Shown here in pieces: positions 1 to 14,336 of a stretch of DNA of 14,336 nucleotides (position 1 is its first letter; each line of letters starts with the position of its first letter). The notes beneath the pieces were generated by a model. That model did not search any database, was not told the origin of the DNA, and saw only the letters and a program-made list of their open reading frames with translations. The position numbers and the translations under genes are program-made. Origin of the DNA: a virus (lineage: Duplodnaviria; Heunggongvirae; Uroviricota; Caudoviricetes); IMG/VR virus record IMGVR_UViG_2537561825_000009, positions 1 through 14,336 of that record, one strand, 5' to 3'.

Positions 1-1
1 G

Positions 2-781
2 ATTCAGGACGCCCTGAAATCCTGTGGCTTACCGGTGGGTGCCGTGCAGGCGATTGATAATCCTGACCGTGCGCTGGTCAGTGAAATGCTGCGTATGGAT
101 AAATACATCGACATGCTGATCCCGCGTGGTGGCGCTGGTTTGCATAAACTGTGCCGCGAACAGTCGACGATCCCGGTGATCACAGGTGGTATAGGCGTAT
201 GCCATATTTATGTTGATGAAAGTGTAGAGATTGCTGAAGCATTAAAAGTGATCGTCAACGCGAAAACTCAGCGTCCGAGCACATGTAATACGGTAGAAAC
301 GTTGCTGGTGAATAAAAACATCGCCGATAGCTTCCTGCCCGCATTAAGCAAACAAATGGAGGAAAGCGGCGTGGCATTACACGCAGATGCAGCTGCGCTG
401 GCGCAGTTGCAGACAGGCCCCGCGAAGGTGGTGGCTGTTAAAGCGGAAGAGTATGACGATGAGTTTCTGTCATTAGATTTGAACGTCAAAATCGTCAGTG
501 ATCTTGACGATGCCATCGCCCATATTCGTGAACACGGCACACAACACTCCGATGCGATCCTGACCCGCGATATGCGCAACGCCCAGCGTTTTGTTAACGA
601 AGTGGATTCGTCCGCTGTTTACGTTAACGCCTCTACGCGTTTTACCGACGGCGGCCAGTTTGGACTGGGTGCGGAAGTGGCGGTAAGCACACAAAAACTC
701 CACGCGCGTGGCCCAATGGGGCTGGAAGCACTGACCACTTACAAGTGGATCGGTATTGGTGATTACACCATTCGTGCGTAA
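2..781 (+). CDS. proA: gamma-glutamyl phosphate reductase, C-terminal part (5' end lies upstream of the window)
   Basis: The frame is open from the window start to a TAA at 779-781. The translation ends ...[23 protein letters not shown], which I recognise as the enterobacterial ProA C-terminus. thrW follows immediately, as in the E. coli proA-thrW arrangement. Confidence 0.9.
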
Positions 782-895
782 ATAAAACCGGGTGATGCAA
801 AAGTAGCCATTTGATTCACAAGGCCATTGACGCATCGCCCGGTTAGTTTTAACCTTGTCCACCGTGATTCACGTTCGTGAACATGTCCTTTCAGG

Positions 896-971
896 GCCGA
901 TATAGCTCAGTTGGTAGAGCAGCGCATTCGTAATGCGAAGGTCGTAGGTTCGACTCCTATTATCGGCACCA
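896..971 (+). tRNA. thrW: tRNA-Thr (anticodon CGU)
   Basis: 76-nt sequence GCCGATATAGCTCAGTTGGTAGAGCAGCGCATTCGTAATGCGAAGGTCGTAGGTTCGACTCCTATTATCGGCACCA. The acceptor stem GCCGATA/TATCGGC pairs, the D-arm is GCTC...GAGC, the T-arm is GGTTCGACTCC, the anticodon loop carries CGT, and the 3' end is CCA. Confidence 0.93.
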
Positions 972-985
972 TTAAAATCAATAAG
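926..985. other. putative prophage attachment site (attL) overlapping the 3' half of thrW; exact core not determinable from one junction
   Basis: The integrase stop codon (986-988, minus strand) lies 14 bp past the tRNA CCA end. P22-type integrases recombine within the 3' end of thrW (established knowledge). The attR copy is not in the window, so the core length is inferred. Confidence 0.3.
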
Positions 986-2149
986 TTACACATCATTAGT
1001 ACCTTCCTTATTTTTTGACTGGGACAAATTTGGGACCGGTGGGTTCAGGATCGAGTCTATTTGCCGTGCGTGTTCGGTAAGGTGATTAGGTGCAAGGTGA
1101 GCATATCGACGAACCATTTCGATAGACTCCCAGCCTCCCATTTCCTGTAACACTGACAACGGGACTCCGGCTTGAACCAGCCAACTTGCCCAGGTGTGTC
1201 TCAAGTCGTGAAATCTGAAATCATCAATACCAGCCCGTCTCAGCGCCGCTTTCCAGGCTGTGTTTGCGTCATACCGCATCTTCCTTACTGTTGGCGCTTT
1301 CGTTCCGTCTGGTTTGGTACAGCTTTCCTTGTACACAAATACCCAACGGTGATGATTCCCGATTTGTTTTTTCAATACGCGACATGCAGTATCATTCAGC
1401 GCAACGCCAATTGCGCGGTTTGATTTACTCTCTTCCGGGTTTATCCATGCCACCCGGCGCTGCATATCTATTTGTTGCCATTCAAGGTTGATGATGTTCG
1501 AGCGTCTTAAGCCTGTTGCCAGTGCAAATTCAACAACAGACTTTAATGGCTCCGGACATTCATCAATCAGCCTTTGTGCTTCATGGGGCTTCAGCCAGCG
1601 GATCCGTTTATTCTTTGGTTGAGGCACTTTAATAATTGGTGCCTTATCCAGCATTTTCCATTCACGCTCTGCGGCTCTTAGTAGGGCCTTTATAAATGAA
1701 AGATGCGTAGCCTTCGTTGCAACGGACGCTGGTTTTGGCGTGTATTCTGGAACAGGTTTCCCTTTTTTTCTGCATGCTTCTGCCCTGAGTTTCCAGTTTT
1801 CCTCATGACGCCGGTTCGTCATTTTCTGCATTGCTGAATAAATTTTTGATTCAGTAATGTCTCTTAGTTGCATTCCTGCGAAATGTTGAAGCCAGAATCC
1901 GATCCGGCTTTTGTCATCGTCCAGTGATTTTTTATGTGCTTTCTCTTCAAGCCACCTGACACACGCTTCCTCGAACGTTATATCAGGTATTTCACCAAGT
2001 TTGCTGACCCGCCATGCTTCAGCCTTTAGCTTGTCATGGAGTTCTGTCGCCTGCCTTTTGTCCTTTGTTCCAAGAGACTGTTTAAATCTTTTACCGTTCG
2101 GCAATGTGAAACTGGCGTACCATATTTCACCTCTGCGGAAGAGTGACAT
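986..2149 (-). CDS. int: tyrosine site-specific integrase, P22 Int-like (387 aa)
   Basis: N-terminus [41 protein letters not shown] and C-terminal catalytic region ...[42 protein letters not shown] (R..HxxR..Y signature) match the P22 integrase as I recall it. An SD (AGAGGAAAG) precedes the ATG, and the gene sits next to the tRNA. Confidence 0.95.
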
Positions 2150-2376
2150 TTTCTTTCCTCTGTTATGCCATCACCCGCGCTCACCTGGACAGTATGCAGC
2201 GGAGACTGAAGAGCCGCAATGCAGGCTTGTCGTGTTGTGAGGTAAGGAGATTTATTCTTAGTGGGATCTTTGCGTGTTGCCTGAAGACGCCCTGTGCGTA
2301 TCCAGTTAATGGCAGTCGGTCTGGATATCTTGAGAAAATGACAGGCCTCATCGAGTGTGAGGCTGTATGGCTCCAT
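2026..2376 (-). CDS. xis: excisionase, P22 Xis-like (116 aa), 3' end overlapping int
   Basis: Internal Met of ORF 2026..2460 begins [36 protein letters not shown], a helix-turn-helix excisionase-like N-terminus. The resulting length of 116 aa matches P22 Xis. Its ATG overlaps the TAA of the upstream ORF (TAATG at 2374-2378 on the minus strand). Confidence 0.75.
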
Positions 2377-2681
2377 TATTTCACCTCTTGCTGTGACATT
2401 GTTGAAAAATGGATACCAGCTCGTTGCTGCCAGACGATCCAACCGAGAGTCATATCCCATGCCATGTATTCGTTATTGCCGTTTTTTGCTCTCCGACGAT
2501 CTACTAAGTCACCGAAACGCTTTTCCATGAATAATTCATAAGCTTCGCGTTCATCTGGTTCTACTTCCAGAGATAGGAGTGCGATTTCATAAGCACGGCG
2601 CTCAATATCGTCTCGCACGTCAAGGCTGCTGATACGCTCTTTAATTTCTTTAATCAGTTCTTTGTCGGTAAAAGTGGTCAT
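2376..2681 (-). CDS. yfdT: hypothetical prophage early protein (101 aa), YfdT-like by size and position
   Basis: Acidic, helical-looking ORF (MTTFTDKELIKEIKERISSLDVRDDIERRAYEIALL...) translationally coupled to both neighbours. Its length and place in the operon fit the yfdPQRST pattern as I recall it. No motif recognised. Confidence 0.5.
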   Translation of the reverse strand: MTTFTDKELIKEIKERISSLDVRDDIERRAYEIALLSLEVEPDEREAYELFMEKRFGDLVDRRRAKNGNNEYMAWDMTLGWIVWQQRAGIHFSTMSQQEVK

Positions 2682-3043
2682 TATGCTCCAGCCTCCGGTG
2701 CTTTTGGCATTACTGCCCAGTGAGTGATATTGACGTTTTCAAGGTCCCCGACCTGAAATGTCCACTGCCATTCTCCGGTTTCTTTTTGTCCCCAGGTGTA
2801 CCAGAGAGAACGCCAGCCAATTAGCCAGCCTTCTCCGTTAGCATCGAATAACAAAACACTTTCATTTGCTGGTGGCAGTTCAGTTGACACTGGTATTACT
2901 TTGTTTTCCTGTGCTGCACATTTAGCTTCAAGCGCATCGAATTTACGCACCAGGTATTCAGCATCTGTTTCATTTACTTTCAGATCTCGCGGTACACATC
3001 TCCCACGAAGAAACCCTTCCATTTCGAAAACATTCATGCGCAT
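2681..3043 (-). CDS. yfdS: DUF551-like prophage protein (120 aa), YfdS-like
   Basis: Trp-rich C-terminal half (...GWLIGWRSLWYTWGQKETGEWQWTF...NITHWAVMPKAPEAG) resembles the DUF551 signature (...THWMPLPEPP). The ORF overlaps its upstream and downstream neighbours. Confidence 0.6.
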   Translation of the reverse strand: MRMNVFEMEGFLRGRCVPRDLKVNETDAEYLVRKFDALEAKCAAQENKVIPVSTELPPANESVLLFDANGEGWLIGWRSLWYTWGQKETGEWQWTFQVGDLENVNITHWAVMPKAPEAGA

Positions 3044-3570
3044 TTGCGTAACTCCGATAACTCGTTAAAGCGTTCCATAAACATCCCGTAGGCATGGCCC
3101 GGTGCCAGTGGAATCACGTTGAACATCTCTGTTGCCGGGATACCTTCCAGTACAGGCCAGAAAGAGCCATCATCAAGCCCGAGATCGCGGCGTTCGGTTG
3201 CCAGCATGATGAGATCGGCATATTTCACGGGCGTACTCATAACTGGGGGTAACCCGTATTTCTCACGGATTACGGCGTCTATTTTTTCTTCCATTTGTTT
3301 ATAGTCAGGAAGAAGGCGTTTCAGTGGTGCGGGAATGTCCTGGCAATACGCTTCTGTTGCATCATGCATTAACGCTTCAAAAGCAAATTCCTGCGGCACC
3401 AGCTGGCTGCAAAGAACCGCATGTTGGGCGACGCTGTAGAAGTGCGAAAGATGACCGGCAAAGCGACAGATATTTGAAAGGGAAACCGCGATATCGTTAA
3501 TATCGATGTCGTCTTTATTTATCCTGTCATAATAAAAATGCTTCCCGGAAAAAGTTTTAATAAATGACAT
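3034..3570 (-). CDS. yfdR: HD-domain phosphohydrolase / 5'-deoxynucleotidase-like (178 aa), YfdR-like
   Basis: His...HD metal-binding signature (FAGHLSHFYSVAQHAVL ... ALMHDATEAY). Start chosen at the ATG at 3570, which is preceded by GTGGAGAACAAA (an SD), rather than the GTG at 3597. The 178-aa length equals YfdR. Confidence 0.75.
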   Translation of the reverse strand: MSFIKTFSGKHFYYDRINKDDIDINDIAVSLSNICRFAGHLSHFYSVAQHAVLCSQLVPQEFAFEALMHDATEAYCQDIPAPLKRLLPDYKQMEEKIDAVIREKYGLPPVMSTPVKYADLIMLATERRDLGLDDGSFWPVLEGIPATEMFNVIPLAPGHAYGMFMERFNELSELRKCA

Positions 3571-3697
3571 TTTGTTCTCCACGTATATGCGCTGCACCGC
3601 GCTGAATTCTGGTAAAAAGAATCCCTCACCATCCGGCGATTATTGAGTAAATTACGTTTCCATAAATGCCCCCGCAGGGGCATTTGCAGTAATGAAA

Positions 3698-4522
3698 TCA
3701 GGCGGTGAAAGTACCAATAAAGGTTTCTACTTTGCTGTCCTTGAATTTCTCAACAAGCAGCTCACGAAATTCGTTAGCCATTTCTTCCTGCACCGCCTCC
3801 AGCTGAATAATGCGCAGAACCAGTACAGGACGATCGCCAGTGATAATACTGAGGCGTAATTTAAACGGACGTTCTTTCAGACCTTCAAACGGAACGCATT
3901 TAAATTCAAATGCCACTGGCATAATGTCTTTGGTCTTCGCTTCGACAGACTCCATCAGGGAGCGTTTGCCGCTGAAGTCATTATCTTCAAAATCAGCGGT
4001 CTGGTTTGCTTCAATCGTGATTTTACGGACAGCCGCAGCCGCTTTTGTTGCCTGAATAGCGTCACCATTAGCATCAAAGCCCACAAGATAGTCGGCCCAG
4101 TCTTCAATCCATTCTGCTAGTGACTTCTGGGAGTTACGCTCGCCGTTAACAGACAACAGAGCAGAGAACGGTGCTGTCTTTTTCAGTTTGAGTGTGGCGG
4201 TGTTATCTGCGTGACCTGGTTCATCAATAGTACCTAGGTTAAGCACACTGACGGCACGCATATTATCAGCATCGATAAAGCAGCGGGTGCCTTCATCTGC
4301 AAGATCTTTAGAATAACGGGTAAAATCATCGATGCTGGCAGTGGAAAGCGCACCACGGAAACGGAAGCGATTTAAATTAAATTTTTCCAGATCATGAATG
4401 CGGAAATTCTCAGGCAATGCCACAGCATCGGCACCAATCTTACTGATAATTTCATTAACACCCTGAGCAGAAATAAGGGCATGGATTTGATTAATTGCGG
4501 TTGCGTCTAAGTTCTGAGACAT
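3698..4522 (-). CDS. yfdQ: DUF2303-family prophage protein (274 aa), YfdQ-like
   Basis: Clean 274-aa ORF with an SD (GTGAGGA) 8 nt before the ATG. Size and neighbourhood (between the yfdP-like and HD genes) match YfdQ. Family assignment is from memory, not alignment. Confidence 0.7.
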
Positions 4523-4587
4523 AATAAGTCCTCACTATATAAAGATATTCAGTGATGAGATAAATAATCAGTTAATTAAAAACGATA

Positions 4588-4950
4588 TTAACGACCTGCT
4601 GCGCGGAGTTTTCCGTCAGGTTCACCGGCAAGAGTCAGCAACTGTCCCTGGTCTTCCTGCAGAATAGTCAGGCGACCACCGCGATTGACATACATCGGCG
4701 TTTCGGTGGTGTCTTCTTCGGAAATTTTCCCGCGGTTAGTCGGGCGAACATATGAGAGTTTGTGTTTGATTTTCACTCGGTTCTCATCAAACGGTTCGAT
4801 TTCTAGGTTGAGCGAGACCTTACCTTTGGTTTTCGTGTTCATCACACCGGAAGCGACTTCACTGAGAACTGCGCCGATTTTGGTTTCAAATACGCCGCCG
4901 TCCAGCTCCCCGATAAATGCCTGCACATCAGTACTGCGTTCGCTAGCCAT
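4588..4950 (-). CDS. yfdP: hypothetical prophage early protein (120 aa), YfdP-like; first gene of the leftward operon
   Basis: ATG at 4950 is preceded by AGGAGCAGCAAA (SD AGGAG, roughly 7 nt spacer). The longer 226-aa upstream extension in the ORF track runs through the GC-rich hairpin region and lacks a better start. Confidence 0.6.
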   Translation of the reverse strand: MASERSTDVQAFIGELDGGVFETKIGAVLSEVASGVMNTKTKGKVSLNLEIEPFDENRVKIKHKLSYVRPTNRGKISEEDTTETPMYVNRGGRLTILQEDQGQLLTLAGEPDGKLRAAGR

Positions 4951-4998
4951 TTTGCTGCTCCTCATCATATCGACCCTGCAAGGTCGGTTAGTTTCTCC

Positions 4999-5087
4999 AC
5001 AAAACAGAGAAGAACACCTGCGGTGACTGCCGCCCGGATGGATTGGGTTATGAGCCCGTCGTCCGGTGATGCTCTTCTCTGTTTTGT
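4999..5087. repeat. long perfect inverted repeat (15-bp arms ACAAAACAGAGAAGA / TCTTCTCTGTTTTGT, 59-nt spacer) in the GC-rich leader of the leftward operon
   Basis: Arms at 4999-5013 and 5073-5087 are exact reverse complements. The spacer contains further short stems (GCGG..CCGC, CCGG..CCGG). Confidence 0.8.
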
Positions 5088-5096
5088 AAAAAGGAC

Positions 5097-5131
5097 GGTA
5101 CCAGCCGGAAGCAAGGGTACAAGCTGGTACC
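5097..5131. promoter_or_regulatory. operator-like inverted repeat GGTACCAGC-N17-GCTGGTACC with an internal GGTACAAG half-site (candidate OL)
   Basis: Shares the GGTACAAG / CTTGTACC half-site with the palindrome in the cI-cro intergenic region. It lies upstream of the first leftward early gene. Confidence 0.35.
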
Positions 5132-5419
5132 GCCAAGACTACACACAGCATAAAGTTGTGGTGCCGGGTGCCTCCCGGTGCCTGGCGAAGGTTGCACACC
5201 AGGCGGGTGGGTATCCACAGAAGGTCGACTGTCAGCCTCAACCTTAACCCGCGTGCGCTGAGCCGCATTCACCACAACGCTAAGGATTCTCTCTGGTTGA
5301 AAATACTTAGCTGTTATGTGCCTGCTTTTAGCCACATCAGGCGAGGTGGACCTAGTTATTCCCCAACAACAAGGATTCGGTTAATCTGGATATCCCCAAC
5401 AACAATAAGAGTATTCAAT

Positions 5420-5935
5420 GTGATCGCTGAATTAACGGCAGCAATGACGGCTATTCGTGAAATCGCCCAGATTGCAAAACTAATGAACGAGGCAAAAACT
5501 CAAGCTGAAGTAAATGCGGCTATTGGTGAGCTGAACTCAAAGCTTGCGTCTATTCAGCGCGAATGCGTGTCTCTCGTTGAACTGCTGGGCTCTTATCAAG
5601 AAATAAATGCTTCTCTCAAAGCTAAAATTGCAGAATTCGAAAACTTTGAGGCTCAGACGGAAGGCTATATCCTTAACCAACTTGAGTCGGGTACTTTTGT
5701 ATACTCGAAGGAGGTAATCGTGAACGGTGACAGCATAACCATGCATCTTTGCCCAAAATGTTTTGGACAAAAGATAGTATCGATACTTCAACCATTCCCG
5801 GTTAGCGAAGATGAGCTTTTTCATAAAAGCAGGTGCCTCCACTGTGAAAATAAGTTTCTGATGAATAAAAATCCGGATTACGTATCGCCTCCATCCATTG
5901 AGGAGTTGGCCAGAAAACTTAACGGCAATCTGTAG
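5420..5935 (+). CDS. hypothetical coiled-coil / C4 zinc-ribbon protein (about 171 aa from the GTG at 5420, or 163 aa from the ATG at 5444); immunity-region moron
   Basis: N-terminal heptad-like segment (AIREIAQIAKLMNEAKTQAEVNAAIGELNSKLASIQRE...) and C-terminal CPKCFGQ...CLHCENKF (CxxC-N29-CxxC). It is on the strand opposite to both flanking operons and has its own intrinsic terminator. The start codon is uncertain because the SD is weak. Confidence 0.6.
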   Translation: MIAELTAAMTAIREIAQIAKLMNEAKTQAEVNAAIGELNSKLASIQRECVSLVELLGSYQEINASLKAKIAEFENFEAQTEGYILNQLESGTFVYSKEVIVNGDSITMHLCPKCFGQKIVSILQPFPVSEDELFHKSRCLHCENKFLMNKNPDYVSPPSIEELARKLNGNL

Positions 5936-5974
5936 ATTGCTACTGTTGTGGATATCCAGATTGTTAAAGAGCGA

Positions 5975-5998
5975 AGCGTCCTATAGGGCGCTTTTTTG
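5975..5998 (+). terminator. rho-independent terminator of the moron gene
   Basis: Stem AGCGTCC / GGGCGCT (7 bp, one G-U pair) with a TATA loop, followed by TTTTTT, 40 bp after the stop codon. The reverse strand has no T-tract. Confidence 0.7.
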
Positions 5999-6077
5999 TT
6001 GCTAACGAATCATCCTGGACTTCATATGCTCCAGGGGGCTACTTCGTGGGCGTCCTGCCTGTTTGTTGTTTCTCTTG

Positions 6078-6114
6078 GGTACATTATGTATCTCAAAGGT
6101 ACATTGTCAAGTAT
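6078..6114. promoter_or_regulatory. pair of operator-like GGTACAT sites (GGTACATTATGTATC and GGTACATTGTCAAGTAT) just beyond the cI terminator
   Basis: Same GGTACAT core as the site overlapping the cro SD and start codon (6903-6916). Confidence 0.3.
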
Positions 6115-6136
6115 AAAAAAACCTGCCGAAGCAGGT
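6114..6136 (-). terminator. rho-independent terminator of the cI transcript
   Basis: Hairpin ACCTGC-cgaa-GCAGGT (6121-6136) followed on the minus strand by a 7-nt U-tract (A-run 6114-6120 on plus), 14 bp after the cI stop. Confidence 0.65.
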
Positions 6137-6149
6137 TCATAAACATTGA

Positions 6150-6824
6150 TTAGGCTTTGATTTTGTATCTTCTTGGTTTTCCTGAGAAAATCACAGTTCC
6201 AATTATAGAGCAATTACCGTTGATCTTAATGTAAGGCTCAGGCCAGTTTGGGTTTAACGCTTTGAGATAACGCTGTGTCCCATCTTCTATCAACCTTTTG
6301 AAGGTGGTTTCACCTGTATCGTGCATCAATGCAATAACGTCGTCACCGTGGCAGGCAGGTACTTCAGGATCGACAAAAATCATGTCTCCCGGGCGGTACT
6401 CATCAATCATTGAATCACCTATCACCCGCAAGATATAAGTCATTTCCCCACAGGGTACAGGGCAGGGATACGTTTCTGCTGTGCTCAAATCAACCTCAGA
6501 ATATCCAACTTCTTTCCATGCTCCGGCCTGTACCCATGATATGACAGGGACTAATGTGATTTGTTTATTAGTGATTGAAACATCAGGTTTTTTTGTGATG
6601 TTCGTTGTCTGGTGTTCTTGATCGAGCCATCCGACAGGCAGGTCGAAACATTTTTCGATGTGTCGTGCCATGCTGTCACCGATATTTTTAGTAGCACCAT
6701 CTCCCATAAACCTGCTGGTCTGGGTTGGCTCGCGATCAATCATAGTGGCAAAGGAAGAATTCCCGCCAACACCATCTCTCAGTTTTCTGGCGTTAGACCG
6801 CCGGATGTCATGGATTGTTTTCAT
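6150..6824 (-). CDS. CI-type prophage repressor with C-terminal LexA-like S24 peptidase domain (224 aa)
   Basis: N-terminal HTH-like region, long linker, then an S24 autopeptidase core with GDSM (Ser nucleophile) and a downstream TFKRL lysine. Divergent from the cro-like gene across an operator-bearing intergenic region. Confidence 0.88.
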   Translation of the reverse strand: MKTIHDIRRSNARKLRDGVGGNSSFATMIDREPTQTSRFMGDGATKNIGDSMARHIEKCFDLPVGWLDQEHQTTNITKKPDVSITNKQITLVPVISWVQAGAWKEVGYSEVDLSTAETYPCPVPCGEMTYILRVIGDSMIDEYRPGDMIFVDPEVPACHGDDVIALMHDTGETTFKRLIEDGTQRYLKALNPNWPEPYIKINGNCSIIGTVIFSGKPRRYKIKA

Positions 6825-6839
6825 AACGAAATTAAAACC

Positions 6840-6860
6840 CTTGTACCGTTAAGGTACAAG
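6840..6860. promoter_or_regulatory. operator palindrome CTTGTACC-GTTAA-GGTACAAG in the cI/cro divergent promoter region (OR)
   Basis: Perfect 8-bp inverted arms located 16 bp upstream of the cI ATG and immediately upstream of the candidate pR -35 element. Confidence 0.6.
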
Positions 6861-6864
6861 TATC

Positions 6865-6892
6865 TTGAAGGTTCATTTCAATCATGTAATAT
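6865..6892 (+). promoter_or_regulatory. candidate pR promoter for the cro-like gene (-35 TTGAAG, 16-bp spacer, -10 TAATAT)
   Basis: Hexamers and spacing read from the sequence. The predicted transcript start is about 20 nt before the cro ATG and includes the GGAGG SD. Confidence 0.4.
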
Positions 6893-6914
6893 GTACGCCG
6901 GAGGTACATATTGT

Positions 6915-7115
6915 ATGAAAGCGTATTGGGACTCTTTAACCAAAGAACAGCAGGGCGAGTTGGCCGGAAAAGTTGGCTCAACACCTGGCTACTTACGGCT
7001 GGGTTTCAATGGCTATAAAAAAGCCAGTTTTGTGCTGGCTAAAAAACTTGAGCAATGCACGTCAGGTGCAATTACGAAATCTGACTTAAGACCGGATATC
7101 TATCCGAAAGATTAG
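6915..7115 (+). CDS. Cro-like HTH regulator, YdaS family (66 aa)
   Basis: ATG at 6915 is preceded by GGAGG with a 10-nt spacer. The protein ...LAKKLEQCTSGAITKSDLRPDIYPKD shares the C-terminal LRPDI motif I recall from YdaS-type Cro proteins. The 167-aa track ORF overlapping cI is a spurious extension. Confidence 0.8.
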   Translation: MKAYWDSLTKEQQGELAGKVGSTPGYLRLGFNGYKKASFVLAKKLEQCTSGAITKSDLRPDIYPKD

Positions 7116-7146
7116 CAGAACACTTTCAATTTTTAACCACAGAACG

Positions 7147-7716
7147 ATGAGGCTAATCGTGGGTAAGCATCACTGGAAAGTAGAAAAACAGCCTGAGTGG
7201 TACGTGAAAGCTGTCAGAAAAACTATCGCGGCGTTGCCGGGTGGTTACGCTGAAGCGGCTGACTGGCTCGATGTAACAGAAAACGCTTTATTCAACCGCC
7301 TTCGTGCAGATGGCGATCAGATTTTCCCGCTGGGATGGGCAATGGTTTTACAGCGTGCTGGTGGCACTCACTTCATTGCTGATGCTGTGGCGCAGTCTGC
7401 AAATGGCGTCTTTGTGTCTCTTCCTGACGTCGAAGATGTGGACAACGCCGATATTAACCAGCGTCTGCTGGAAGTCATTGAACAGATCGGCAGTTATTCA
7501 AAACAGATTCGTTCAGCAATCGAAGACGGTGTAGTGGAACCGCATGAGAAGACAGCAATTAACGACGAGCTGTATCTCTCAATTTCGAAGCTGCAGGAGC
7601 ATGCAGCACTTGTCTACAAAATTTTTTGCATTTCAGAAAGTAATGACGCCCGCGAGTGTGCAGCTCCGGGCGTCGTGGCGTCGATTGCTTCTGGTTGTGG
7701 AGAAACTAACGCATGA
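7147..7716 (+). CDS. CII-like / YdaT-like phage regulatory protein (189 aa; possible GTG start at 7159)
   Basis: Sits in the cII position directly after cro. Size and composition are consistent with the phage CII (CP76)/YdaT family. The GTG at 7159 has a closer GAGG SD than the ATG at 7147. Confidence 0.55.
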
Positions 7717-8051
7717 ACAGTTTAACAACACACTACCGTCGCTCGCAACTGATTGCGCTTCCTGTACCGGGTGGAAAAGCGAAGGTGGAATATTGCTATG
7801 CAGTGAATGTACCAGGTGACAGGGAAATTGTAACCCACAGCTTTGCAGAGTGGGCTGTGGGTGATTTCAACCGGCAGAAGGAGACAGTCCTTTGCGACAA
7901 GTTAACCGCTGGTTCAAAGATCACTACGGAGTGCCCGTCAGAGTCATTCGTTGGGAGCCGGAAACACAACGGGTTATCTACCTCCGCGAAGGTTATGAGC
8001 ATGAATGCTTCAGTCCGCTCGAACAGTTTCGTCGTAAATTCAGGGAAATAG
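7713..8051 (+). CDS. hypothetical protein (112 aa); possibly only the N-terminal half is genuine
   Basis: ATG overlaps the stop of the upstream gene (ATGA). The C-terminal third is Ser-rich and low-complexity, while another frame over the same DNA encodes a more protein-like sequence (see next feature). Confidence 0.4.
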
Positions 8052-8071
8052 AGGTCGGTCATGAGCACTAA
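7892..8071 (+). CDS. candidate small protein (59 aa, TTG start) translationally coupled to the replication gene
   Basis: Strong SD GAAGGAGA 8 nt before the TTG. Translation [59 protein letters not shown] looks like a folded domain. Its stop overlaps the start of the O-like gene by 11 nt. It falls just below the 60-aa ORF-track threshold. Confidence 0.35.
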
Positions 8072-9002
8072 ATTAACCGGCTATGTATGGGATGGTTGCG
8101 CTGCATCAGGCATGAAGTTATCCAGCGTGGCAATTATGGCCCGCCTGGCTGATTTCAGTAATGACGAAGGTGTGTGCTGGCCATCAATTGAAACCATTGC
8201 CCGTCAGATTGGCGCGGGGATGAGTACCGTCAGAACGGCTATCGCACGGCTGGAAGCAGAAGGCTGGTTAACGCGTAAGGCGCGTCGCCAGGGTAACCGC
8301 AATGCGTCGAATGTTTATCAGCTTAACGTTGCGAAGCTTCAGGCAGCGGCATTTTCTCAACTGTCAGATTCTGACCCGTCAAAATCTGACGCATCAAAAT
8401 CTGACCCGTCAAAATTTGATGCGTCGAAATCTGGCAAAAAAGCGGGTTTTCACCCGTCAGAATCTGGCGGGGATCCGTCAGTAAAATCAAAACATGATCC
8501 GTCAGATAAAAAACCTTCTCGTCCGGACGCTTCGCAACCGGACACGCAGACGGCTGAACAGGATTTTTTAACTCGCCATCCTGATGCGGTTGTATTCAGC
8601 CCTAAAAAGCGCCAGTGGGGGACGCAGGATGATTTGACCTGCGCACAGTGGCTCTGGAAAAAAATCATCGCCCTGTACGAGCAGGCTGCCGAATGTGACG
8701 GCGAGGGGGTTCGTCCCAAAGAACCGAACTGGACAGCCTGGGCAAACGAAATTCGCCTGATGTGTGTGCAGGATGGTCGTACTCACAAACAAATCTGCGA
8801 GATGTACAGCCGCGTCAGCCGCGATCCGTTCTGGTGCCGTAACGTGCTCAGCCCGTCGAAGCTGCGGGAAAAATGGGATGAGCTTTCCCTGCGCTTATCG
8901 CCGTCCGTAAGCACGTACACCGAAAAACGCGAAGACCCGTACTTCAAATCCAGTTACGACAACGTGGACTACAGCCAGATCCCGGCAGGATTCAGGGGGT
9001 GA
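8061..9002 (+). CDS. phage replication initiator, O-like (N-terminal winged-helix domain, repeat linker, C-terminal DnaT-like domain; 313 aa)
   Basis: N-terminus ...VAIMARLADFSNDEGVCWPSIETIARQIGAGMSTVRTAIARLEAEGWLTRK is a typical replication-initiator HTH. The central part is encoded by DNA iterons. The C-terminal Trp-rich region (...CAQWLWKKIIALYEQ...PNWTAWANEIRLM...) is typical of the DnaT-like domain. Confidence 0.8.
   Translation: MSTKLTGYVWDGCAASGMKLSSVAIMARLADFSNDEGVCWPSIETIARQIGAGMSTVRTAIARLEAEGWLTRKARRQGNRNASNVYQLNVAKLQAAAFSQLSDSDPSKSDASKSDPSKFDASKSGKKAGFHPSESGGDPSVKSKHDPSDKKPSRPDASQPDTQTAEQDFLTRHPDAVVFSPKKRQWGTQDDLTCAQWLWKKIIALYEQAAECDGEGVRPKEPNWTAWANEIRLMCVQDGRTHKQICEMYSRVSRDPFWCRNVLSPSKLREKWDELSLRLSPSVSTYTEKREDPYFKSSYDNVDYSQIPAGFRG
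8358..8515. repeat. origin-type iteron array inside the O-like gene (TCTGACCCGTCAAAA-like units)
   Basis: Four consecutive 15-bp units at 8370-8384, 8385-8399, 8400-8414 and 8415-8429, plus further degenerate CCGTCA-containing copies to about 8515. They encode the DPSKSDASKSDPSKFDASKS repeat in the protein. Confidence 0.7.
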
Positions 9003-9017
9003 TCATGAGTCTGTTAA

Positions 9018-9536
9018 ATGACGTTCAGAAATTCATTGAAGCCCAAAGATATTGTTGGTGTATGGACCGTATGTCACGGGCATATTGCACCGCCAGATAT
9101 TCCGGCAGGCTTCGTGGCTGTTTTCAACAGTGATGAGGCATCGTGGCATCTCGTTGAAGACCATCGAGGTAAAACGGTTTATGACGTGGCATCAGGGGAC
9201 GCGTTATTTATTTCTGAACTCGGTCCGTTACCGGAAAATGTTACTTGGTTGTCACCGGAAGGGGAATATCAGAAGTGGAACGGCACAGCCTGGGTGAAGG
9301 ATACGGAAGCAGAAAAACTGTTCCGGATCCGGGAGGCGGAAGAAACAAAAAACAGCCTGATGCAGGTAGCCAGTGAGCATATTGCGCCGCTTCAGGATGC
9401 TGCAGATCTGGAAATCGCAACGGAGGAAGAAACCTCGTTGCTTGAAGCCTGGAAGAAGTATCGGGTGTTGCTGAATCGTGTTGATACATCAACTGCACCT
9501 GATATTGAGTGGCCTGCAATCCCTGTTATGGAATAA
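9018..9536 (+). CDS. tail fibre assembly protein (Tfa) homologue, probably a 5'-truncated remnant (172 aa)
   Basis: From [35 protein letters not shown]... to ...[17 protein letters not shown] is the conserved Tfa body as I recall it. The first ~21 residues ([21 protein letters not shown]) are unrelated, there is no good SD, and no tail fibre gene lies upstream. Confidence 0.65.
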
Positions 9537-10089
9537 TCGTTCCTGTTGTAGCCACAGTCACGTCATATACAAGAACTTGCCGGCCTAAGAAGAGTTCGTG
9601 CTGATTTTGAATATAAAATCAGCATTACAACGCCCGAAATACCCAGGCTAAAAAATTTCTTAGGACATTATCAGCTGGCGATACATAGATGGACTGGATA
9701 CTAGACCGATAGAGGCGCTGTATGCGTCATCTTGTCGTGATGCTGGCGAAGTTGTGCGAACGAAGTATTAACTTTTGCAGCCTAGCTGATTCAATTGATG
9801 CAGCCACACTAACGGGGCGCTTTTTTCCATGTAATGGTTGTAGAAGATGTTACTGAGAGGGATTAAATGAAACAGCAAATACGTCATATGTTAGAGCATG
9901 TTGTGGTTGACTGTTGAACACACCTATCACAAATGTGCTTCTTTAGAAAGAGAATTTACATAAGCAAATTGCAACATGTTTTTTTTCTGAGTAAATAGTA
10001 TGATTAACAATGCTGACTACCATTTTCTTACATGGCGAACCTAATTAAGAATTAAACGCGAGTAGATTACCCGCTTTAGAGGAGGATTT

Positions 10090-11031
10090 ATGTCCGGTTA
10101 CTGTTTTTACTCTCAGGATGCATTAGCCTTAGCCCAGGCAGCTGGTGTTGATGTAATAATAAACGAGTATGCTGAGAAGAATAAAAAACAGACATATGTT
10201 CTTTGTCGTCCCCTGTCAAATGAGGATGTAAAGTATGATTATGACCAAGCGATAGCGGTATTTTCGGCTGGTATAAAACCTTTTTTTATGAATTTAGGAG
10301 ATGACGTCGAACTCTTTGAAGAGTATCAAGAGGATTTTCTAGAGGATGTATCATATTTAGCAGAGAAATTTAAGTATCGTAGTAAAATTGGAAGAAAAAA
10401 GACATGGCAAGATTTATTTGAAGTACTTTCTGTTGGTGATGCCGATTTCAGTAAGCTGGAGGTTGAAACTAAAGAAAGTAGAATAATTGATTTGCTAATC
10501 TCGCTTATTGTGGGAAGTATTAACGATACTTCAAGAATTAATCTTGAAGCAAGTAATTTATTAGATACAATAAAATCAAAGATTATTTTATTTGATACTG
10601 ATCAAACAAAATTCGTTTTCCAAAGTGGAATTGGAAAAAAGACTGTAATACAAGGCTTGGCTGGTTCGGGGAAAACAGAACTCCTTTTACATAAATTAAA
10701 AGAGGTTTATTTAAGGAACCCTGATGCTAAAATTGCATTTACTTGTTTTAATAAAATACTTGCATCTACAATGAGAACTAGGATACCAGAGTTTTTTGAT
10801 TTTATGCGAGTGGAAAAGCAAATTGAATGGGGTACGAAACTTTTTTGTTTTAACTCTTGGGGTTTGACTAAAGATCCCTTTTCTGGGATGTATAGATATA
10901 TATGTCATTATTACGAAATTCCATTCGGTGGTTTTGGCAACGGAGATTTCGATGCTCTTTGCAAAAAAGCCATTTTGGATATAAAAAAAGTGGGCGGTCT
11001 GATGAAAAAGCTCTCGATTATGTGTTTATAG
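10090..11031 (+). CDS. UvrD-like SF1 helicase, N-terminal segment: unknown ~185-aa domain plus Walker A and motif Ia; frame ends 42 nt after an A7 tract
   Basis: Strong SD AGAGGAGGA before the ATG. Walker A GLAGSGKT at residues 189-196 and Ia-like FTCFNKILAS. GC content is clearly lower than the flanking prophage. Confidence 0.75.
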   Translation: MSGYCFYSQDALALAQAAGVDVIINEYAEKNKKQTYVLCRPLSNEDVKYDYDQAIAVFSAGIKPFFMNLGDDVELFEEYQEDFLEDVSYLAEKFKYRSKIGRKKTWQDLFEVLSVGDADFSKLEVETKESRIIDLLISLIVGSINDTSRINLEASNLLDTIKSKIILFDTDQTKFVFQSGIGKKTVIQGLAGSGKTELLLHKLKEVYLRNPDAKIAFTCFNKILASTMRTRIPEFFDFMRVEKQIEWGTKLFCFNSWGLTKDPFSGMYRYICHYYEIPFGGFGNGDFDALCKKAILDIKKVGGLMKKLSIMCL

Positions 11032-12077
11032 ATGAAAGCCAAGATTTTCCACAAAGCTTCATTGAACTATGTGAAATGGTTACATCTAAAAAACTATATG
11101 TAGCGGGCGATGTATTTCAAAATATATTTATGCCGATTAATGATAACGTGAATCGAGCAGATATAGTTCTTAAAAAATGTTATCGCACAGATCCAAAGAA
11201 CTTAATGTTTTCTCATGCACTAGGAATGGGACTTTATGAGAAACCGGTGCTTCGGTGGTTGAAAGAGACTGAGTGGGATTCTTGTGGATATAAATATAAT
11301 AAGGTTGGGGATAGAGTACATTTATCTAGGGATCCGTTAAGACGCTTTGAAGATATTCCAAAAAATCATAAAAGTACGGCTATTCATTTACTAAAAGAAG
11401 TGGATAATGGTCCTGATAAAATAGTTGAAATTATTAAGGATATTCAGGCCCGCAATCCTACTTTAGAGCAAGGAGATATAGCAGTCATTTTCCTTGATGC
11501 TAGTGGTTATATTTATGATTATATTCAATCACTAAAATCAAAAGTCAAGTTGCAGCTTGGTTGGGACTCTAATATTTCACATGAGACAAAATCAAAACAA
11601 GATGGGAAGCTTTTTATTTCCAATATAAACAATGCAAAAGGGCTTGAGTTCCCATTTGTTATTTGTTTTGCTATGAAATTAGTAAAGAGAGCAAACTTTC
11701 GAAATGCTCTGTATACTATGATGGCTAGATCTTTTTTAGAAAGCCATTTAGTTTTAAATAATGATAATGAAAATCCGGCAATGCCTACTATTATTGAAGG
11801 TTTAGATTTTCTCAATAAAAATGATTATATGGATGTAAGACTTCCGTCGGATGAGGAAATAAACAATCAAAAGGATTATATTATTTTGGATGAGTCTACC
11901 TCTATTAATCAAATGGTTAGAAAATATTGTGAAGATAAAAAATCCACACCTCGCTTAATAGCAAAAGTTACTCACACTGTAGAAACTATAATAGCAGGTC
12001 TTGATGATGATGATGTCGATGATGACTATATAAATAGATTGATTGAAATAGAATATATAAGGAATAAAAAGTTATGA
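10902..12077 (+). CDS. UvrD-like SF1 helicase, C-terminal segment (motifs II-VI) in the alternate frame; the real join is at the A7 tract 10983-10989
   Basis: Motifs DYVFIDESQDF (II), LYVAGDVFQNIF (III), CYRTD (IV), ISNINNAKGLEFPFVI (V, UvrD_C-like) and ALYTMMARSF (VI), then an acidic tail DDDDVDDD. Adding one A to the A7 run fuses the two segments into a single 662-aa protein. Confidence 0.75.
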   Translation: MSLLRNSIRWFWQRRFRCSLQKSHFGYKKSGRSDEKALDYVFIDESQDFPQSFIELCEMVTSKKLYVAGDVFQNIFMPINDNVNRADIVLKKCYRTDPKNLMFSHALGMGLYEKPVLRWLKETEWDSCGYKYNKVGDRVHLSRDPLRRFEDIPKNHKSTAIHLLKEVDNGPDKIVEIIKDIQARNPTLEQGDIAVIFLDASGYIYDYIQSLKSKVKLQLGWDSNISHETKSKQDGKLFISNINNAKGLEFPFVICFAMKLVKRANFRNALYTMMARSFLESHLVLNNDNENPAMPTIIEGLDFLNKNDYMDVRLPSDEEINNQKDYIILDESTSINQMVRKYCEDKKSTPRLIAKVTHTVETIIAGLDDDDVDDDYINRLIEIEYIRNKKL

Positions 12078-12712
12078 GTTTTTATTTCTTTAATAATGTA
12101 CCTACAGTGTACCTTGAAAAGTTCTGCGCTGTAAGAGATGCATTTTCCAATCTGGAAAATCTTCTTATTGCTGCGGAAATTATAAATACATGTCATGACT
12201 GTTGGAATAAAGAAACAAATGATTTCGATTTGCTAATAAGTACTGGTACTCATAAGCGAATTCTGGTGAGGAAACCGGATGGTTTTTTTTCTATGAATTT
12301 ACCATTTCAAGTAATTGAGTATGAAAGCAATATCTGTTTTAACTATGATGCCTATGGGCTTCCTGTTAATGCAGAGTTTATTTCTCGATGCAGGAATGTA
12401 ATAAATACTTGCAGTAATGGCGCTTTTTCTCAGGAGGCAATTGCTCTTGAATTGTGTGATAACTTTGATCGAGATATTCAAAGTGCTATAAATTATGCTG
12501 ATGCAATTTGTTCATTGTTGTTAGTTGATCATGGGTATTTTAGGTTTGATGATGATCCTAAAAATGCGAAGGATAAAGTGCATCCAAGATATCACTTTGA
12601 TTTTTTCTTCAATAATTCTACTAATGTAAAGATAGGCTGTAATACTCGTTTGGATGAATCATTTTTTTTAGAACTATTTGATGTAAATAAAGACCGCCCC
12701 TATCTGGCTTGA
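12074..12712 (+). CDS. hypothetical cysteine-rich protein (212 aa), translationally coupled to the helicase
   Basis: ATG overlaps the helicase stop (ATGA at 12074-12077). Nine Cys residues including a CHDC pair. Same low GC as the helicase. No recognisable family. Confidence 0.7.
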   Translation: MSFYFFNNVPTVYLEKFCAVRDAFSNLENLLIAAEIINTCHDCWNKETNDFDLLISTGTHKRILVRKPDGFFSMNLPFQVIEYESNICFNYDAYGLPVNAEFISRCRNVINTCSNGAFSQEAIALELCDNFDRDIQSAINYADAICSLLLVDHGYFRFDDDPKNAKDKVHPRYHFDFFFNNSTNVKIGCNTRLDESFFLELFDVNKDRPYLA

Positions 12713-12714
12713 AT

Positions 12715-12740
12715 TATAAGCGCCCATCAGGGCGCTTATA
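12715..12740. other. very stable hairpin (11-bp perfect stem TATAAGCGCCC / GGGCGCTTATA, 4-nt loop) 3 bp after the 212-aa gene
   Basis: Read directly from the sequence. There is no U-tract on either strand, so it is not a canonical intrinsic terminator. Confidence 0.6.
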
Positions 12741-13162
12741 GGGTGAGATGAGTATTATAAAGAGTCTGTTTTGGGTAGTGTTTTTATAAATATTTACATA
12801 TATCATAACTTTTGCCAATGTAATATTTGAATTCTTCTATTACGTATTTAAGTATCGTTTGGCTTTTTTTCTTTGGCTATCCTGCACTCAATAAGCATAA
12901 AAATCCATTTACATTGTTTTTGCATATGACATGTTTTTAATTGTTCGAATGGATCGTGTTAGTACTATTTTATCTGGTAAAAAGCAGATGTAGATATTAG
13001 GAAGTTTTTTTTGAATGATAATGGAGCAATTAAGATTTTTTATTCTAACCATTCCCTAGAAATACTCTGCCTAAAAAATAGACATAATATGGCAACCATA
13101 ATAGGCCGGTTTTTGGTGGCATGAAAGGATTTTTAATCCTTGTGCCTGACACCTTATCATGA

Positions 13163-14031
13163 TTATGAAAGACCGTAGTATTTATTTAGCGCGGTGGTAG
13201 CGGCTTGAGTTGCTACAGCTATTCCTATACCCAAAATACCATGGGCTGCTTTACTTGCAATATTTGCCAGCCATTTACTAACAGATTGACCGTATTCATC
13301 ACGTCTGTTAGCTATCGGGCCATCTTCACCAATAGCAATTTCTAAATCGTTTACATCAGATTTAGGAAACCCCTGAGCTAAGAGATATTCTTTTAATGAT
13401 TCAATGTTGTTTTTTACGATATGGTTATTCACAGAAAATGAGTTTTCATTTCCGAAGTTTATAACAGTATTGTCTCCAAAAATTGAGTTATGAAACAATG
13501 AAGACGTGTCGATATTTTTAAGTTTTTCTGTCATGTTTTTCTCATCTGATATTTCAGAAACTTGATCAGAAAGTTCAAGTATAAAATCAAGTAGCCGTGA
13601 TCTGACCTGAGTTAAGATGGAAGTGAAGTTATGTAGCGCGATCTCTTTATAACAGCATGTTAACTCATAGCCTCTATCGATACCTTTGCAATATTTAACT
13701 AATGCATAATCTAAAGGAATTGGCTGCTGCAGGGTATGGCTATCACCAGCATTGGTTACTAGGTCTTCGATTTGACTGATTGAAAGTCTAACTTTACTGG
13801 TTGTAGCATCTTCATAGTCATCTTCACTGAGATAGCCAATCGGTAAAGGAAAAGCTCTATATAGGCGAATGCCATTGTTCAGATCTGCAAGAATTCTTGT
13901 GCCAACAATTCTATAATCGGGAAGGGAAACTGAATCAGAATAACCGTTTATCTCATGATTTACCCATGCAGCAAGCTCCTTTTTCCCGATAGAGAAAAGA
14001 AGGATCTTTGTTTTTATGAGAGCATCTGTTG
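13163..14031 (-). pseudogene. 3' fragment (at least 289 codons) of a gene for a protein with a C-terminal glycine-zipper TM helix; 5' end interrupted by the IS66-family element
   Basis: Minus-strand frame is open without any stop from the IS end (14031) to the TAA at 13163. In-frame ATG/GTG/TTG are absent for 165 codons upstream of the Met at 13534. C-terminus is ...WLANIASKAAHGILGIGIAVATQAATTALNKYYGLS. Confidence 0.6.
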
Positions 14032-14336
14032 GTAAGCGGCTCGTCAGAACCGTATTGATATTTACTGAGAGCTCAGATCAACTTTCCAGGGCAACAGATC
14101 GCGTACCCGGTTTGCCGGCCAGTCCTGGATATGTTCAATGACGTAGCGCAGCCACTTTTCTGGCTCCACATTGTTCAGACGGCATGTGCCGATCAGCGAG
14201 TACAACACCGCCGCATGTTCACCACCGCTGTCGGAACCCGCGAACATCCACTTTTTCCGGCCTACGGCCACTCCCCGTAAGGCGTTCTCTGCGATGTTGT
14301 TGTCGATTTCCACCCAGCCATTACTGCAGTACACGT
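14032..14336 (-). mobile_element. IS66-family insertion sequence, terminal ~300 bp (rest beyond window end)
   Basis: Terminus begins GTAAGCGGCTCGTC at 14032, the GTAAGCG end typical of IS66-family inverted repeats, 30 bp outside the transposase stop. Confidence 0.7.
14062..14336 (-). CDS. IS66-family transposase (TnpC), C-terminal part; 5' end beyond window
   Basis: ...VEIDNNIAENALRGVAVGRKKWMFAGSDSGGEHAAVLYSLIGTCRLNNVEPEKWLRYVIEHIQDWPANRVRDLLPWKV matches the conserved IS66 TnpC C-terminal region as I recall it. Confidence 0.85.
   Translation of the reverse strand, partial: VYCSNGWVEIDNNIAENALRGVAVGRKKWMFAGSDSGGEHAAVLYSLIGTCRLNNVEPEKWLRYVIEHIQDWPANRVRDLLPWKVDLSSQ

Follow-up and report, generated by a model that had tools for sequence, protein, structure and literature searches.

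Insertion of ISCro1 into an AbiTii-domain gene in a prophage-end island of ETEC-type Escherichia coli

AbiT is, according to Bouchard et al. 2002 as cited in PMC13064643, a lactococcal abortive infection system made up of two genes. The lactococcal AbiTii prototype works with AbiTi, and its activation is tied to the capsid and to early phage genes (PMC13064643). In some bacteria, AbiTii has been described as the N-terminal part of fusions with HEPN effectors (Anantharaman et al., PMC3710099), and Anantharaman et al. 2013 (PMC3710099) drew attention to a highly conserved glutamate of the domain. Because of what these two papers (PMC3710099, PMC13064643) report on AbiTii, we regard the AbiTii-domain gene described here as a putative abortive infection or defence gene. 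Most of it lies at one end of the window, by which we mean the whole stretch of 14,336 nucleotides that was analysed (positions 1 to 14,336 of the IMG/VR record IMGVR_UViG_2537561825_000009), where it is cut short by an insertion sequence of the IS66 family.

On the minus strand of the window (translation 14335-13163), a frame is open from 14077 down to 13166, which amounts to 304 codons between a TGA at 14080-14078 and a TAA at 13165-13163. The greater part of it, 289 of the 304 codons, sits between base 14032 at the IS junction and the stop at 13165-13163, and the longest open stretch in any other frame of the region 12714-14031 is at most 53 codons. The first-pass annotation had described 289 stop-free codons running into an IS terminus, GTAAGCG at 14032, and had considered a chance origin very unlikely. 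The coordinates are accurate, and from the base composition (37% G+C) the chance of 289 open codons is approximately 1e-9. A Rfam scan of 12700-14336 found no RNA family.

The first in-frame ATG, GTG or TTG of this frame is an ATG at 13534. ORF callers report just a 123-aa ORF because no such codon precedes it, and the mechanical ORF list likewise gives only 13163..13534 for the decapitated frame, which is thus hidden from start-codon-based callers as had been pointed out. The start-free run comprises 166 codons and has a probability of approximately 5e-4 given the start density of the neighbouring genes. We considered whether it is a selected feature that avoids internal initiation. This was ruled out by two relatives: in the allele of strain CFT073, which is 93.6% identical, positions 98 and 109 within the start-free region are start-type codons, and an Amphritea homologue has many in-frame start-type codons in the corresponding region. 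The run is specific to this allele and not conserved, and for that reason we attribute it to chance.

Among 5,426 complete E. coli genomes, a megablast search returned six that are identical to the window over 13000-14336, namely 504239, 67-1, TW11681, WS1933D, S1-NGR-02-A and LR883000, and many others that match only as far as 14031. Homology to uninterrupted genomes ends at this base, which places the junction at 14031/14032. We use the locus of strain 504239 (L001) as the filled site and that of HCP5S3_I4 (L002) as the empty site. In the latter, the gene is a 921-bp CDS encoding a protein of 306 aa, WP_033803116.1, annotated as AbiTii domain-containing protein. Window positions 13163..14031, on the minus strand, are 100% identical to nt 53-921 of this gene. 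They form its 3' part (869 of 921 nt, 94%), made up of positions 2-3 of codon 18, codons 19-306 and the stop, without a start. The IS was inserted at nt 53-60 of the CDS (codons 18-20) and interrupts codon 18 of the 306 codons.

If a gene had been decapitated, its N-terminal continuation should be found in frame on the far side of the IS, and this is where it is. In L001, positions 12732-12792 directly beyond the IS hold the ATG and codons 2-20, in frame, with 12740-12792 being the remainder of the 5' end of the gene outside the duplicated octamer described below. The lost N-terminal part thus lies beyond the IS as proposed, but it is not large: only 52 nt (17 codons and 1 nt) are separated from the gene body, together with the start codon and the upstream signals. 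Including the octamer, the far-side stump encodes MNQLQEIIQILSTGDEDTTD, followed by IS sequence and a stop after 37 codons. A comparison with strains that lack the IS, as had been recommended, shows the intact 921-bp gene in 31 genomes, in all of which the stump and the window fragment are contiguous. Altogether the gene is found in 40 of the 5,426 complete genomes. The 31 intact copies are either at least 99.5% identical or belong to an allele of 93.6-93.8% identity that includes CFT073, and six carriers share the identical ISCro1 junction. These six probably reflect a single ancestral event in one ETEC-type clonal group.

The inserted element is ISCro1, first named in Citrobacter rodentium. 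In the window, its terminal 305 bp (14032..14336, minus strand) comprise the inverted-repeat end GTAAGCGGCTC, with the GTAAGCG motif beginning precisely at 14032, and the 3' end of tnpC with its stop at 14062-14064. The minus-strand ORF 14062..14334 encodes the C-terminal part of an IS66 transposase (Pfam PF13817 DDE_Tnp_IS66_C, 4.9e-17; PF03050 DDE_Tnp_IS66, 5.2e-11). The IS continues past the window; the full element, annotated as ISCro1, measures 2,699 bp and occupies L001 10033-12731 in strain 504239. According to the RefSeq annotation of this identical DNA, the parts outside the window complete a tnpA (L001 12001-12678), tnpB (11654-12001) and tnpC (10063-11634) set, all on the minus strand, with a tnpC product of 523 aa. 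The genes of the element and the broken gene share the same strand. The terminal repeats are GTAAGCGGCTC and GTAACCGGCTC; the former, at window 14032, matches the near-complement ...GAGCCGGTTAC at L001 12721-12731 in 10 of 11 positions. The octamer ATCTGTTG stands immediately outside both IS ends in L001, as its left copy at window 14024..14031 and its second copy at L001 12732-12739 (repeat family D6), and occurs as a single copy in the empty site at L002 7024-7031. This is the 8-bp target-site duplication that had been predicted for an IS66-family insertion. An IS66-type TnpC, the tnpA-tnpB-tnpC order, GTAAGCG-type repeats and the 8-bp duplication together place the element in IS66/ISCro1, and the call of an IS66-family insertion is borne out by the full-length copy. 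In the same ETEC-type strains, plasmids carry copies of ISCro1 that are 100% identical over the full 2,699 bp, and the element is abundant, with 7-8 places per chromosome that match ISCro1, counting any match to the 305-bp IS end.

In RefSeq, both the IS and a partial pseudogene are already annotated on identical DNA. PGAP splits the remnant in two. The first piece is a 123-aa 'hypothetical protein' at L001 9164-9535, equal to window 13163-13534 on the minus strand (WP_000136855.1), which corresponds to residues 184-306 of the intact protein. The second is a pseudo fragment at L001 9569-10060 (window 13568-14059), of which 28 nt belong to the IS end. This fragment is wrongly labelled 'missing C-terminus', although in fact it lacks the N-terminus.

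The translation of the 289 codons matches Pfam AbiTii PF18864 with an E value of 2.5e-31 and 109.8 bits, against a curated cut-off of 27.6, and is thus a member of the family. In the alignment, residues 2-175 of the protein correspond to positions 18-184 of the 189 in the profile. The PADLOC AbiTii model also matches the frame (2.1e-30), and P0001, a near-identical intact representative, spans positions 3-181 of the 185 in that profile. Since the profile match starts at position 18, only the extreme N-terminus has been lost; by this alignment, approximately 17 N-terminal residues are missing from an AbiTii domain that is otherwise complete. These include M1, I7, L11, S12 and S13, which are conserved at 90% or more in an alignment of 30 sequences (A1) and are removed by the IS. 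The AbiTii glutamate E44 (...WVNHEINGY...) is invariant in the same alignment and present in the window copy, in agreement with membership of the family. In a search of 5.8 billion clustered proteins, we found 264 homologues, nearly all of 304-306 aa, with 100% query coverage down to 38% identity, from Enterobacteriaceae and marine Gammaproteobacteria. A tblastn search of the INPHARED phage genomes found no record encoding a homologue. An AlphaFold2 model (pLDDT 80.9) shows an alpha/beta domain at approximately residues 1-176, with a long helix at its end; the C-terminal part that follows is helical and includes a disordered linker (208-222).

The C-terminal module of approximately 120 aa (residues 184-306; window 13166-13534) has the motifs FGDNxxI..G..N, YG..V..W...SKA and LL..AL..YYG. 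Invariant in alignment A1 are D192, F197, I201, G203, N205, I208, G211, L230, L234, L247, D254, G265, V268, W271 and K278. Searches with the module gave no Pfam, NCBIfam or PDB sequence match, and no HEPN-like structural match was found. With conserved His and Arg lacking as well as any Pfam, NCBIfam or PDB match, we rejected an assignment to HEPN. We also rejected a transmembrane segment, the Kyte-Doolittle maximum over 19 residues being 1.38 and below the usual threshold of 1.6. Weak fold matches point to the HeLo and CC-R cell-death bundles. A phmmer search of the full library with the 123-aa query found the module in 708 cluster representatives at 50% identity, almost always at approximately residues 184-305 of proteins of about 300 aa. 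Among the shorter or atypical matches, 8 of 10 are truncated AbiTii proteins by Pfam scan; in P0136 (227 aa) and P0154 (363 aa), the module stands behind unrelated N-terminal regions without a Pfam match. This distribution fits a portable C-terminal module and indirectly supports a putative effector role.

The AbiTii gene stands alone in a defence island located at a prophage end. In the present lineage, a pair of helicase genes converges on it (STM2767 and STM2766 families), of which the helicase gives GajB/UvrD-like PADLOC matches. On the upstream side follow a 3' fragment of ssrA and then a SMEK-domain gene that matches the PADLOC model for the Argonaute-associated REase-NTD. In CFT073 and in Leclercia, the gene is located immediately downstream of full ssrA at a prophage end, and in Amphritea and Kangiella it is found among unrelated genes. 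Across four genera, including Leclercia, Amphritea and Kangiella, we found no conserved neighbour or partner gene, and PADLOC scans of the neighbouring genes gave no match to an AbiTi partner. The ssrA (tmRNA) fragment is a 28-nt copy of the 3' end that is located approximately 170 nt upstream of the ATG and resembles an att-site remnant (L001 ~12960-12987 and L002 ~7252-7279, both outside the window). Just before the ribosome-binding site of the AbiTii gene is a hairpin with a T-run after it; a promoter is not evident there.

Several other features of the window should be mentioned. A tRNA-Thr(CGT), presumably thrW, is found at 896-971, followed by a tyrosine integrase at 986-2149. The prophage is lambdoid and heavily deleted, with replication genes abutting a tail-fibre-assembly remnant at 9018-9536, inside which the Rfam family IS009 matches at 9295-9493. 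At 10976-10982, the window has seven A's, compared with eight in all 32 of 32 complete E. coli genomes with the STM2767-family DEAD/DEAH helicase. Through the frameshift caused by this 1-bp deletion, the 662-aa helicase is split between the plus-strand ORFs 10090..11031 and 10902..12077. It is either a real second lesion of the island or a homopolymer sequencing error; the A7 variant had no match among the complete RefSeq E. coli genomes, of which the closest differ by two SNPs and one indel. Beyond the IS, the island mixes genes of the CP4-6 type and the CP4-57 type (ykfI/yafW, yfjR), which suggests a mosaic that arose by recombination between prophage remnants.

We suggest, with a probability of about 0.9, that the ISCro1 insertion beheaded an AbiTii-domain gene in an ordinary knock-out by simple transposition. 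In brief, a single transposition put the full-length 2,699-bp ISCro1 into nt 53-60 of the stand-alone 921-bp gene, and the IS now cuts off the promoter, the ribosome-binding site, the ATG and the first 17 codons from the other 288. On the strand of the remnant, the IS end brings in a stop, located 15 codons upstream of the junction, but not a start. Because of this, and because a run of 166 codons lacks any in-frame ATG, GTG or TTG, the gene body would be a pseudogene that is no longer expressed, and the upstream stump could encode only a 37-aa peptide running into the IS. We looked for an outward promoter in the IS end or the remnant, and no sigma-70-like consensus match was found on the minus strand from the IS end to 13163. 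The remnant is most likely a null allele. By analogy with proteins of the AbiTii/AbiJ type, the N-terminal domain may sense infection and the C-terminal module may execute the response, and the ETEC-type lineage would have lost a putative abortive infection or defence function. It had been proposed that the IS inactivated a toxic effector or a system component, which is plausible because the gene encodes an AbiTii-domain protein of an abortive infection family.

It could also be asked if the insertion was a selected inactivation, in which a gene that is costly, autotoxic or in conflict with a resident prophage or plasmid is repeatedly knocked out and the knock-outs are fixed. The 40 carrier genomes include at least three 5' truncations by IS elements that arose independently, namely ISCro1 at codon 18 (six genomes) and IS3 twice. 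In strain W150 (L004 4001-4813), IS3 abuts the gene after codon 40, and in D10 (L005 4001-4621) after codon 104, in both cases with the upstream DNA replaced by unrelated sequence and with an in-frame GTG or TTG supplied by the IS3 end, which PGAP takes as start. These alleles with IS-supplied starts might express N-terminally trimmed variants. The independent IS3 truncations in two strains hint weakly at selection against the gene, and the toxicity of Abi-type genes is classical, established knowledge (reviews: PMC13064643, PMC3710099). On the other hand, the gene is located at an AT-rich and IS-rich island or att boundary where rearrangements are frequent anyway, the events in W150 and D10 come with adjacent deletions, and the neighbouring helicase is also damaged in the window, which suggests that a degraded prophage is decaying as a whole. 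In addition, the sample is small, and 31 of the 40 genomes keep the gene intact. We therefore consider selection possible but unlikely to be the explanation. More speculatively, and in our opinion doubtful at present, the gene may be an autotoxic single-gene Abi module, its C-terminal module a new effector of the membrane or cell-death type and the IS decapitations a recurrent disarming.

A partly functional remnant, in which read-through from tnpC and initiation at the ATG at 13534 yield a free 123-aa C-terminal module that acts as a deregulated effector or a dominant-negative fragment, appears very improbable to us. It is consistent with this idea that tnpC is co-oriented with the gene, that its stop is 30 nt from the IS end and that we found no terminator-like site downstream. 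The ATG also falls on the domain boundary (residue 184), is a Met in most enterobacterial homologues and is preceded by GAGAAAAAC, with a weak GAG motif 6 nt upstream. However, conservation of this Met does not extend beyond Enterobacteriaceae, even P0019 and P0038 lack it, and the match to a Shine-Dalgarno sequence is poor. Free-standing genes for the module were not seen, the Pfam-scanned short matches being truncated AbiTii fragments, and an unregulated copy, if it is an effector, would probably be counter-selected. That the long frame is a chance feature or a decayed relic, with the 123-aa ORF 13163..13534 as the true gene, a reading which is supported only by its listing as a CDS by ORF callers and PGAP and which the first-pass annotation had named as a possible refutation, is refuted by the odds against such an open frame by chance, the strong AbiTii match upstream of 13534, the 31 genomes with an intact 306-aa gene, and full-length homologues (~304-306 aa) with a conserved N-terminus.

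Returning to a knock-out by simple transposition, the event itself matters little, as the loss of an accessory gene to an IS66-family element is routine. It does provide a clean and resolved example, with empty site, filled site and duplication, of how start-codon-based callers and PGAP misreport a decapitated gene. For a single-gene AbiTii subfamily that is widespread and uncharacterised, it would also be a null allele of natural origin, carried by an ETEC-type clonal group, and the closely similar intact alleles elsewhere are a ready-made comparison with respect to a role in phage defence. In addition, the analysis delineates a conserved C-terminal module of approximately 120 aa without family assignment. 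The recurrent 5' truncation by IS elements (three events in 40 carriers) and this unclassified portable module are modest leads.

Compared with lactococcal AbiT, the gene shares the N-terminal alpha/beta AbiTii domain including E44. The AbiTi partner is adjacent in AbiT and absent here, where the gene stands alone and has the extra conserved C-terminal module; the likeness is that of the shared domain, and a function in phage defence is putative. The logic is the same as in the AbiTii-HEPN fusions (c2405, Ymh; PMC3710099), in which an AbiTii N-terminal domain is combined with a C-terminal module likewise found behind other N-termini. The HEPN domains in those proteins have a conserved His (Rx4-6H or H-only), whereas the C-terminal module here has no invariant His or Arg, no Pfam match and no HEPN-like structural match, so that a HEPN RNase is not supported. 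The ISCro1 copy has 100% identity to the E. coli plasmid copies and the same gene order, repeats and duplication, so that nothing structural differs and only the insertion site is particular here. The event does not differ from the IS-mediated pseudogenisation described in E. coli pathovars: it is a simple insertion with duplication, fixed with an identical junction in one clonal group of six ETEC-type genomes, and an ordinary textbook insertion in a gene of an annotated family.
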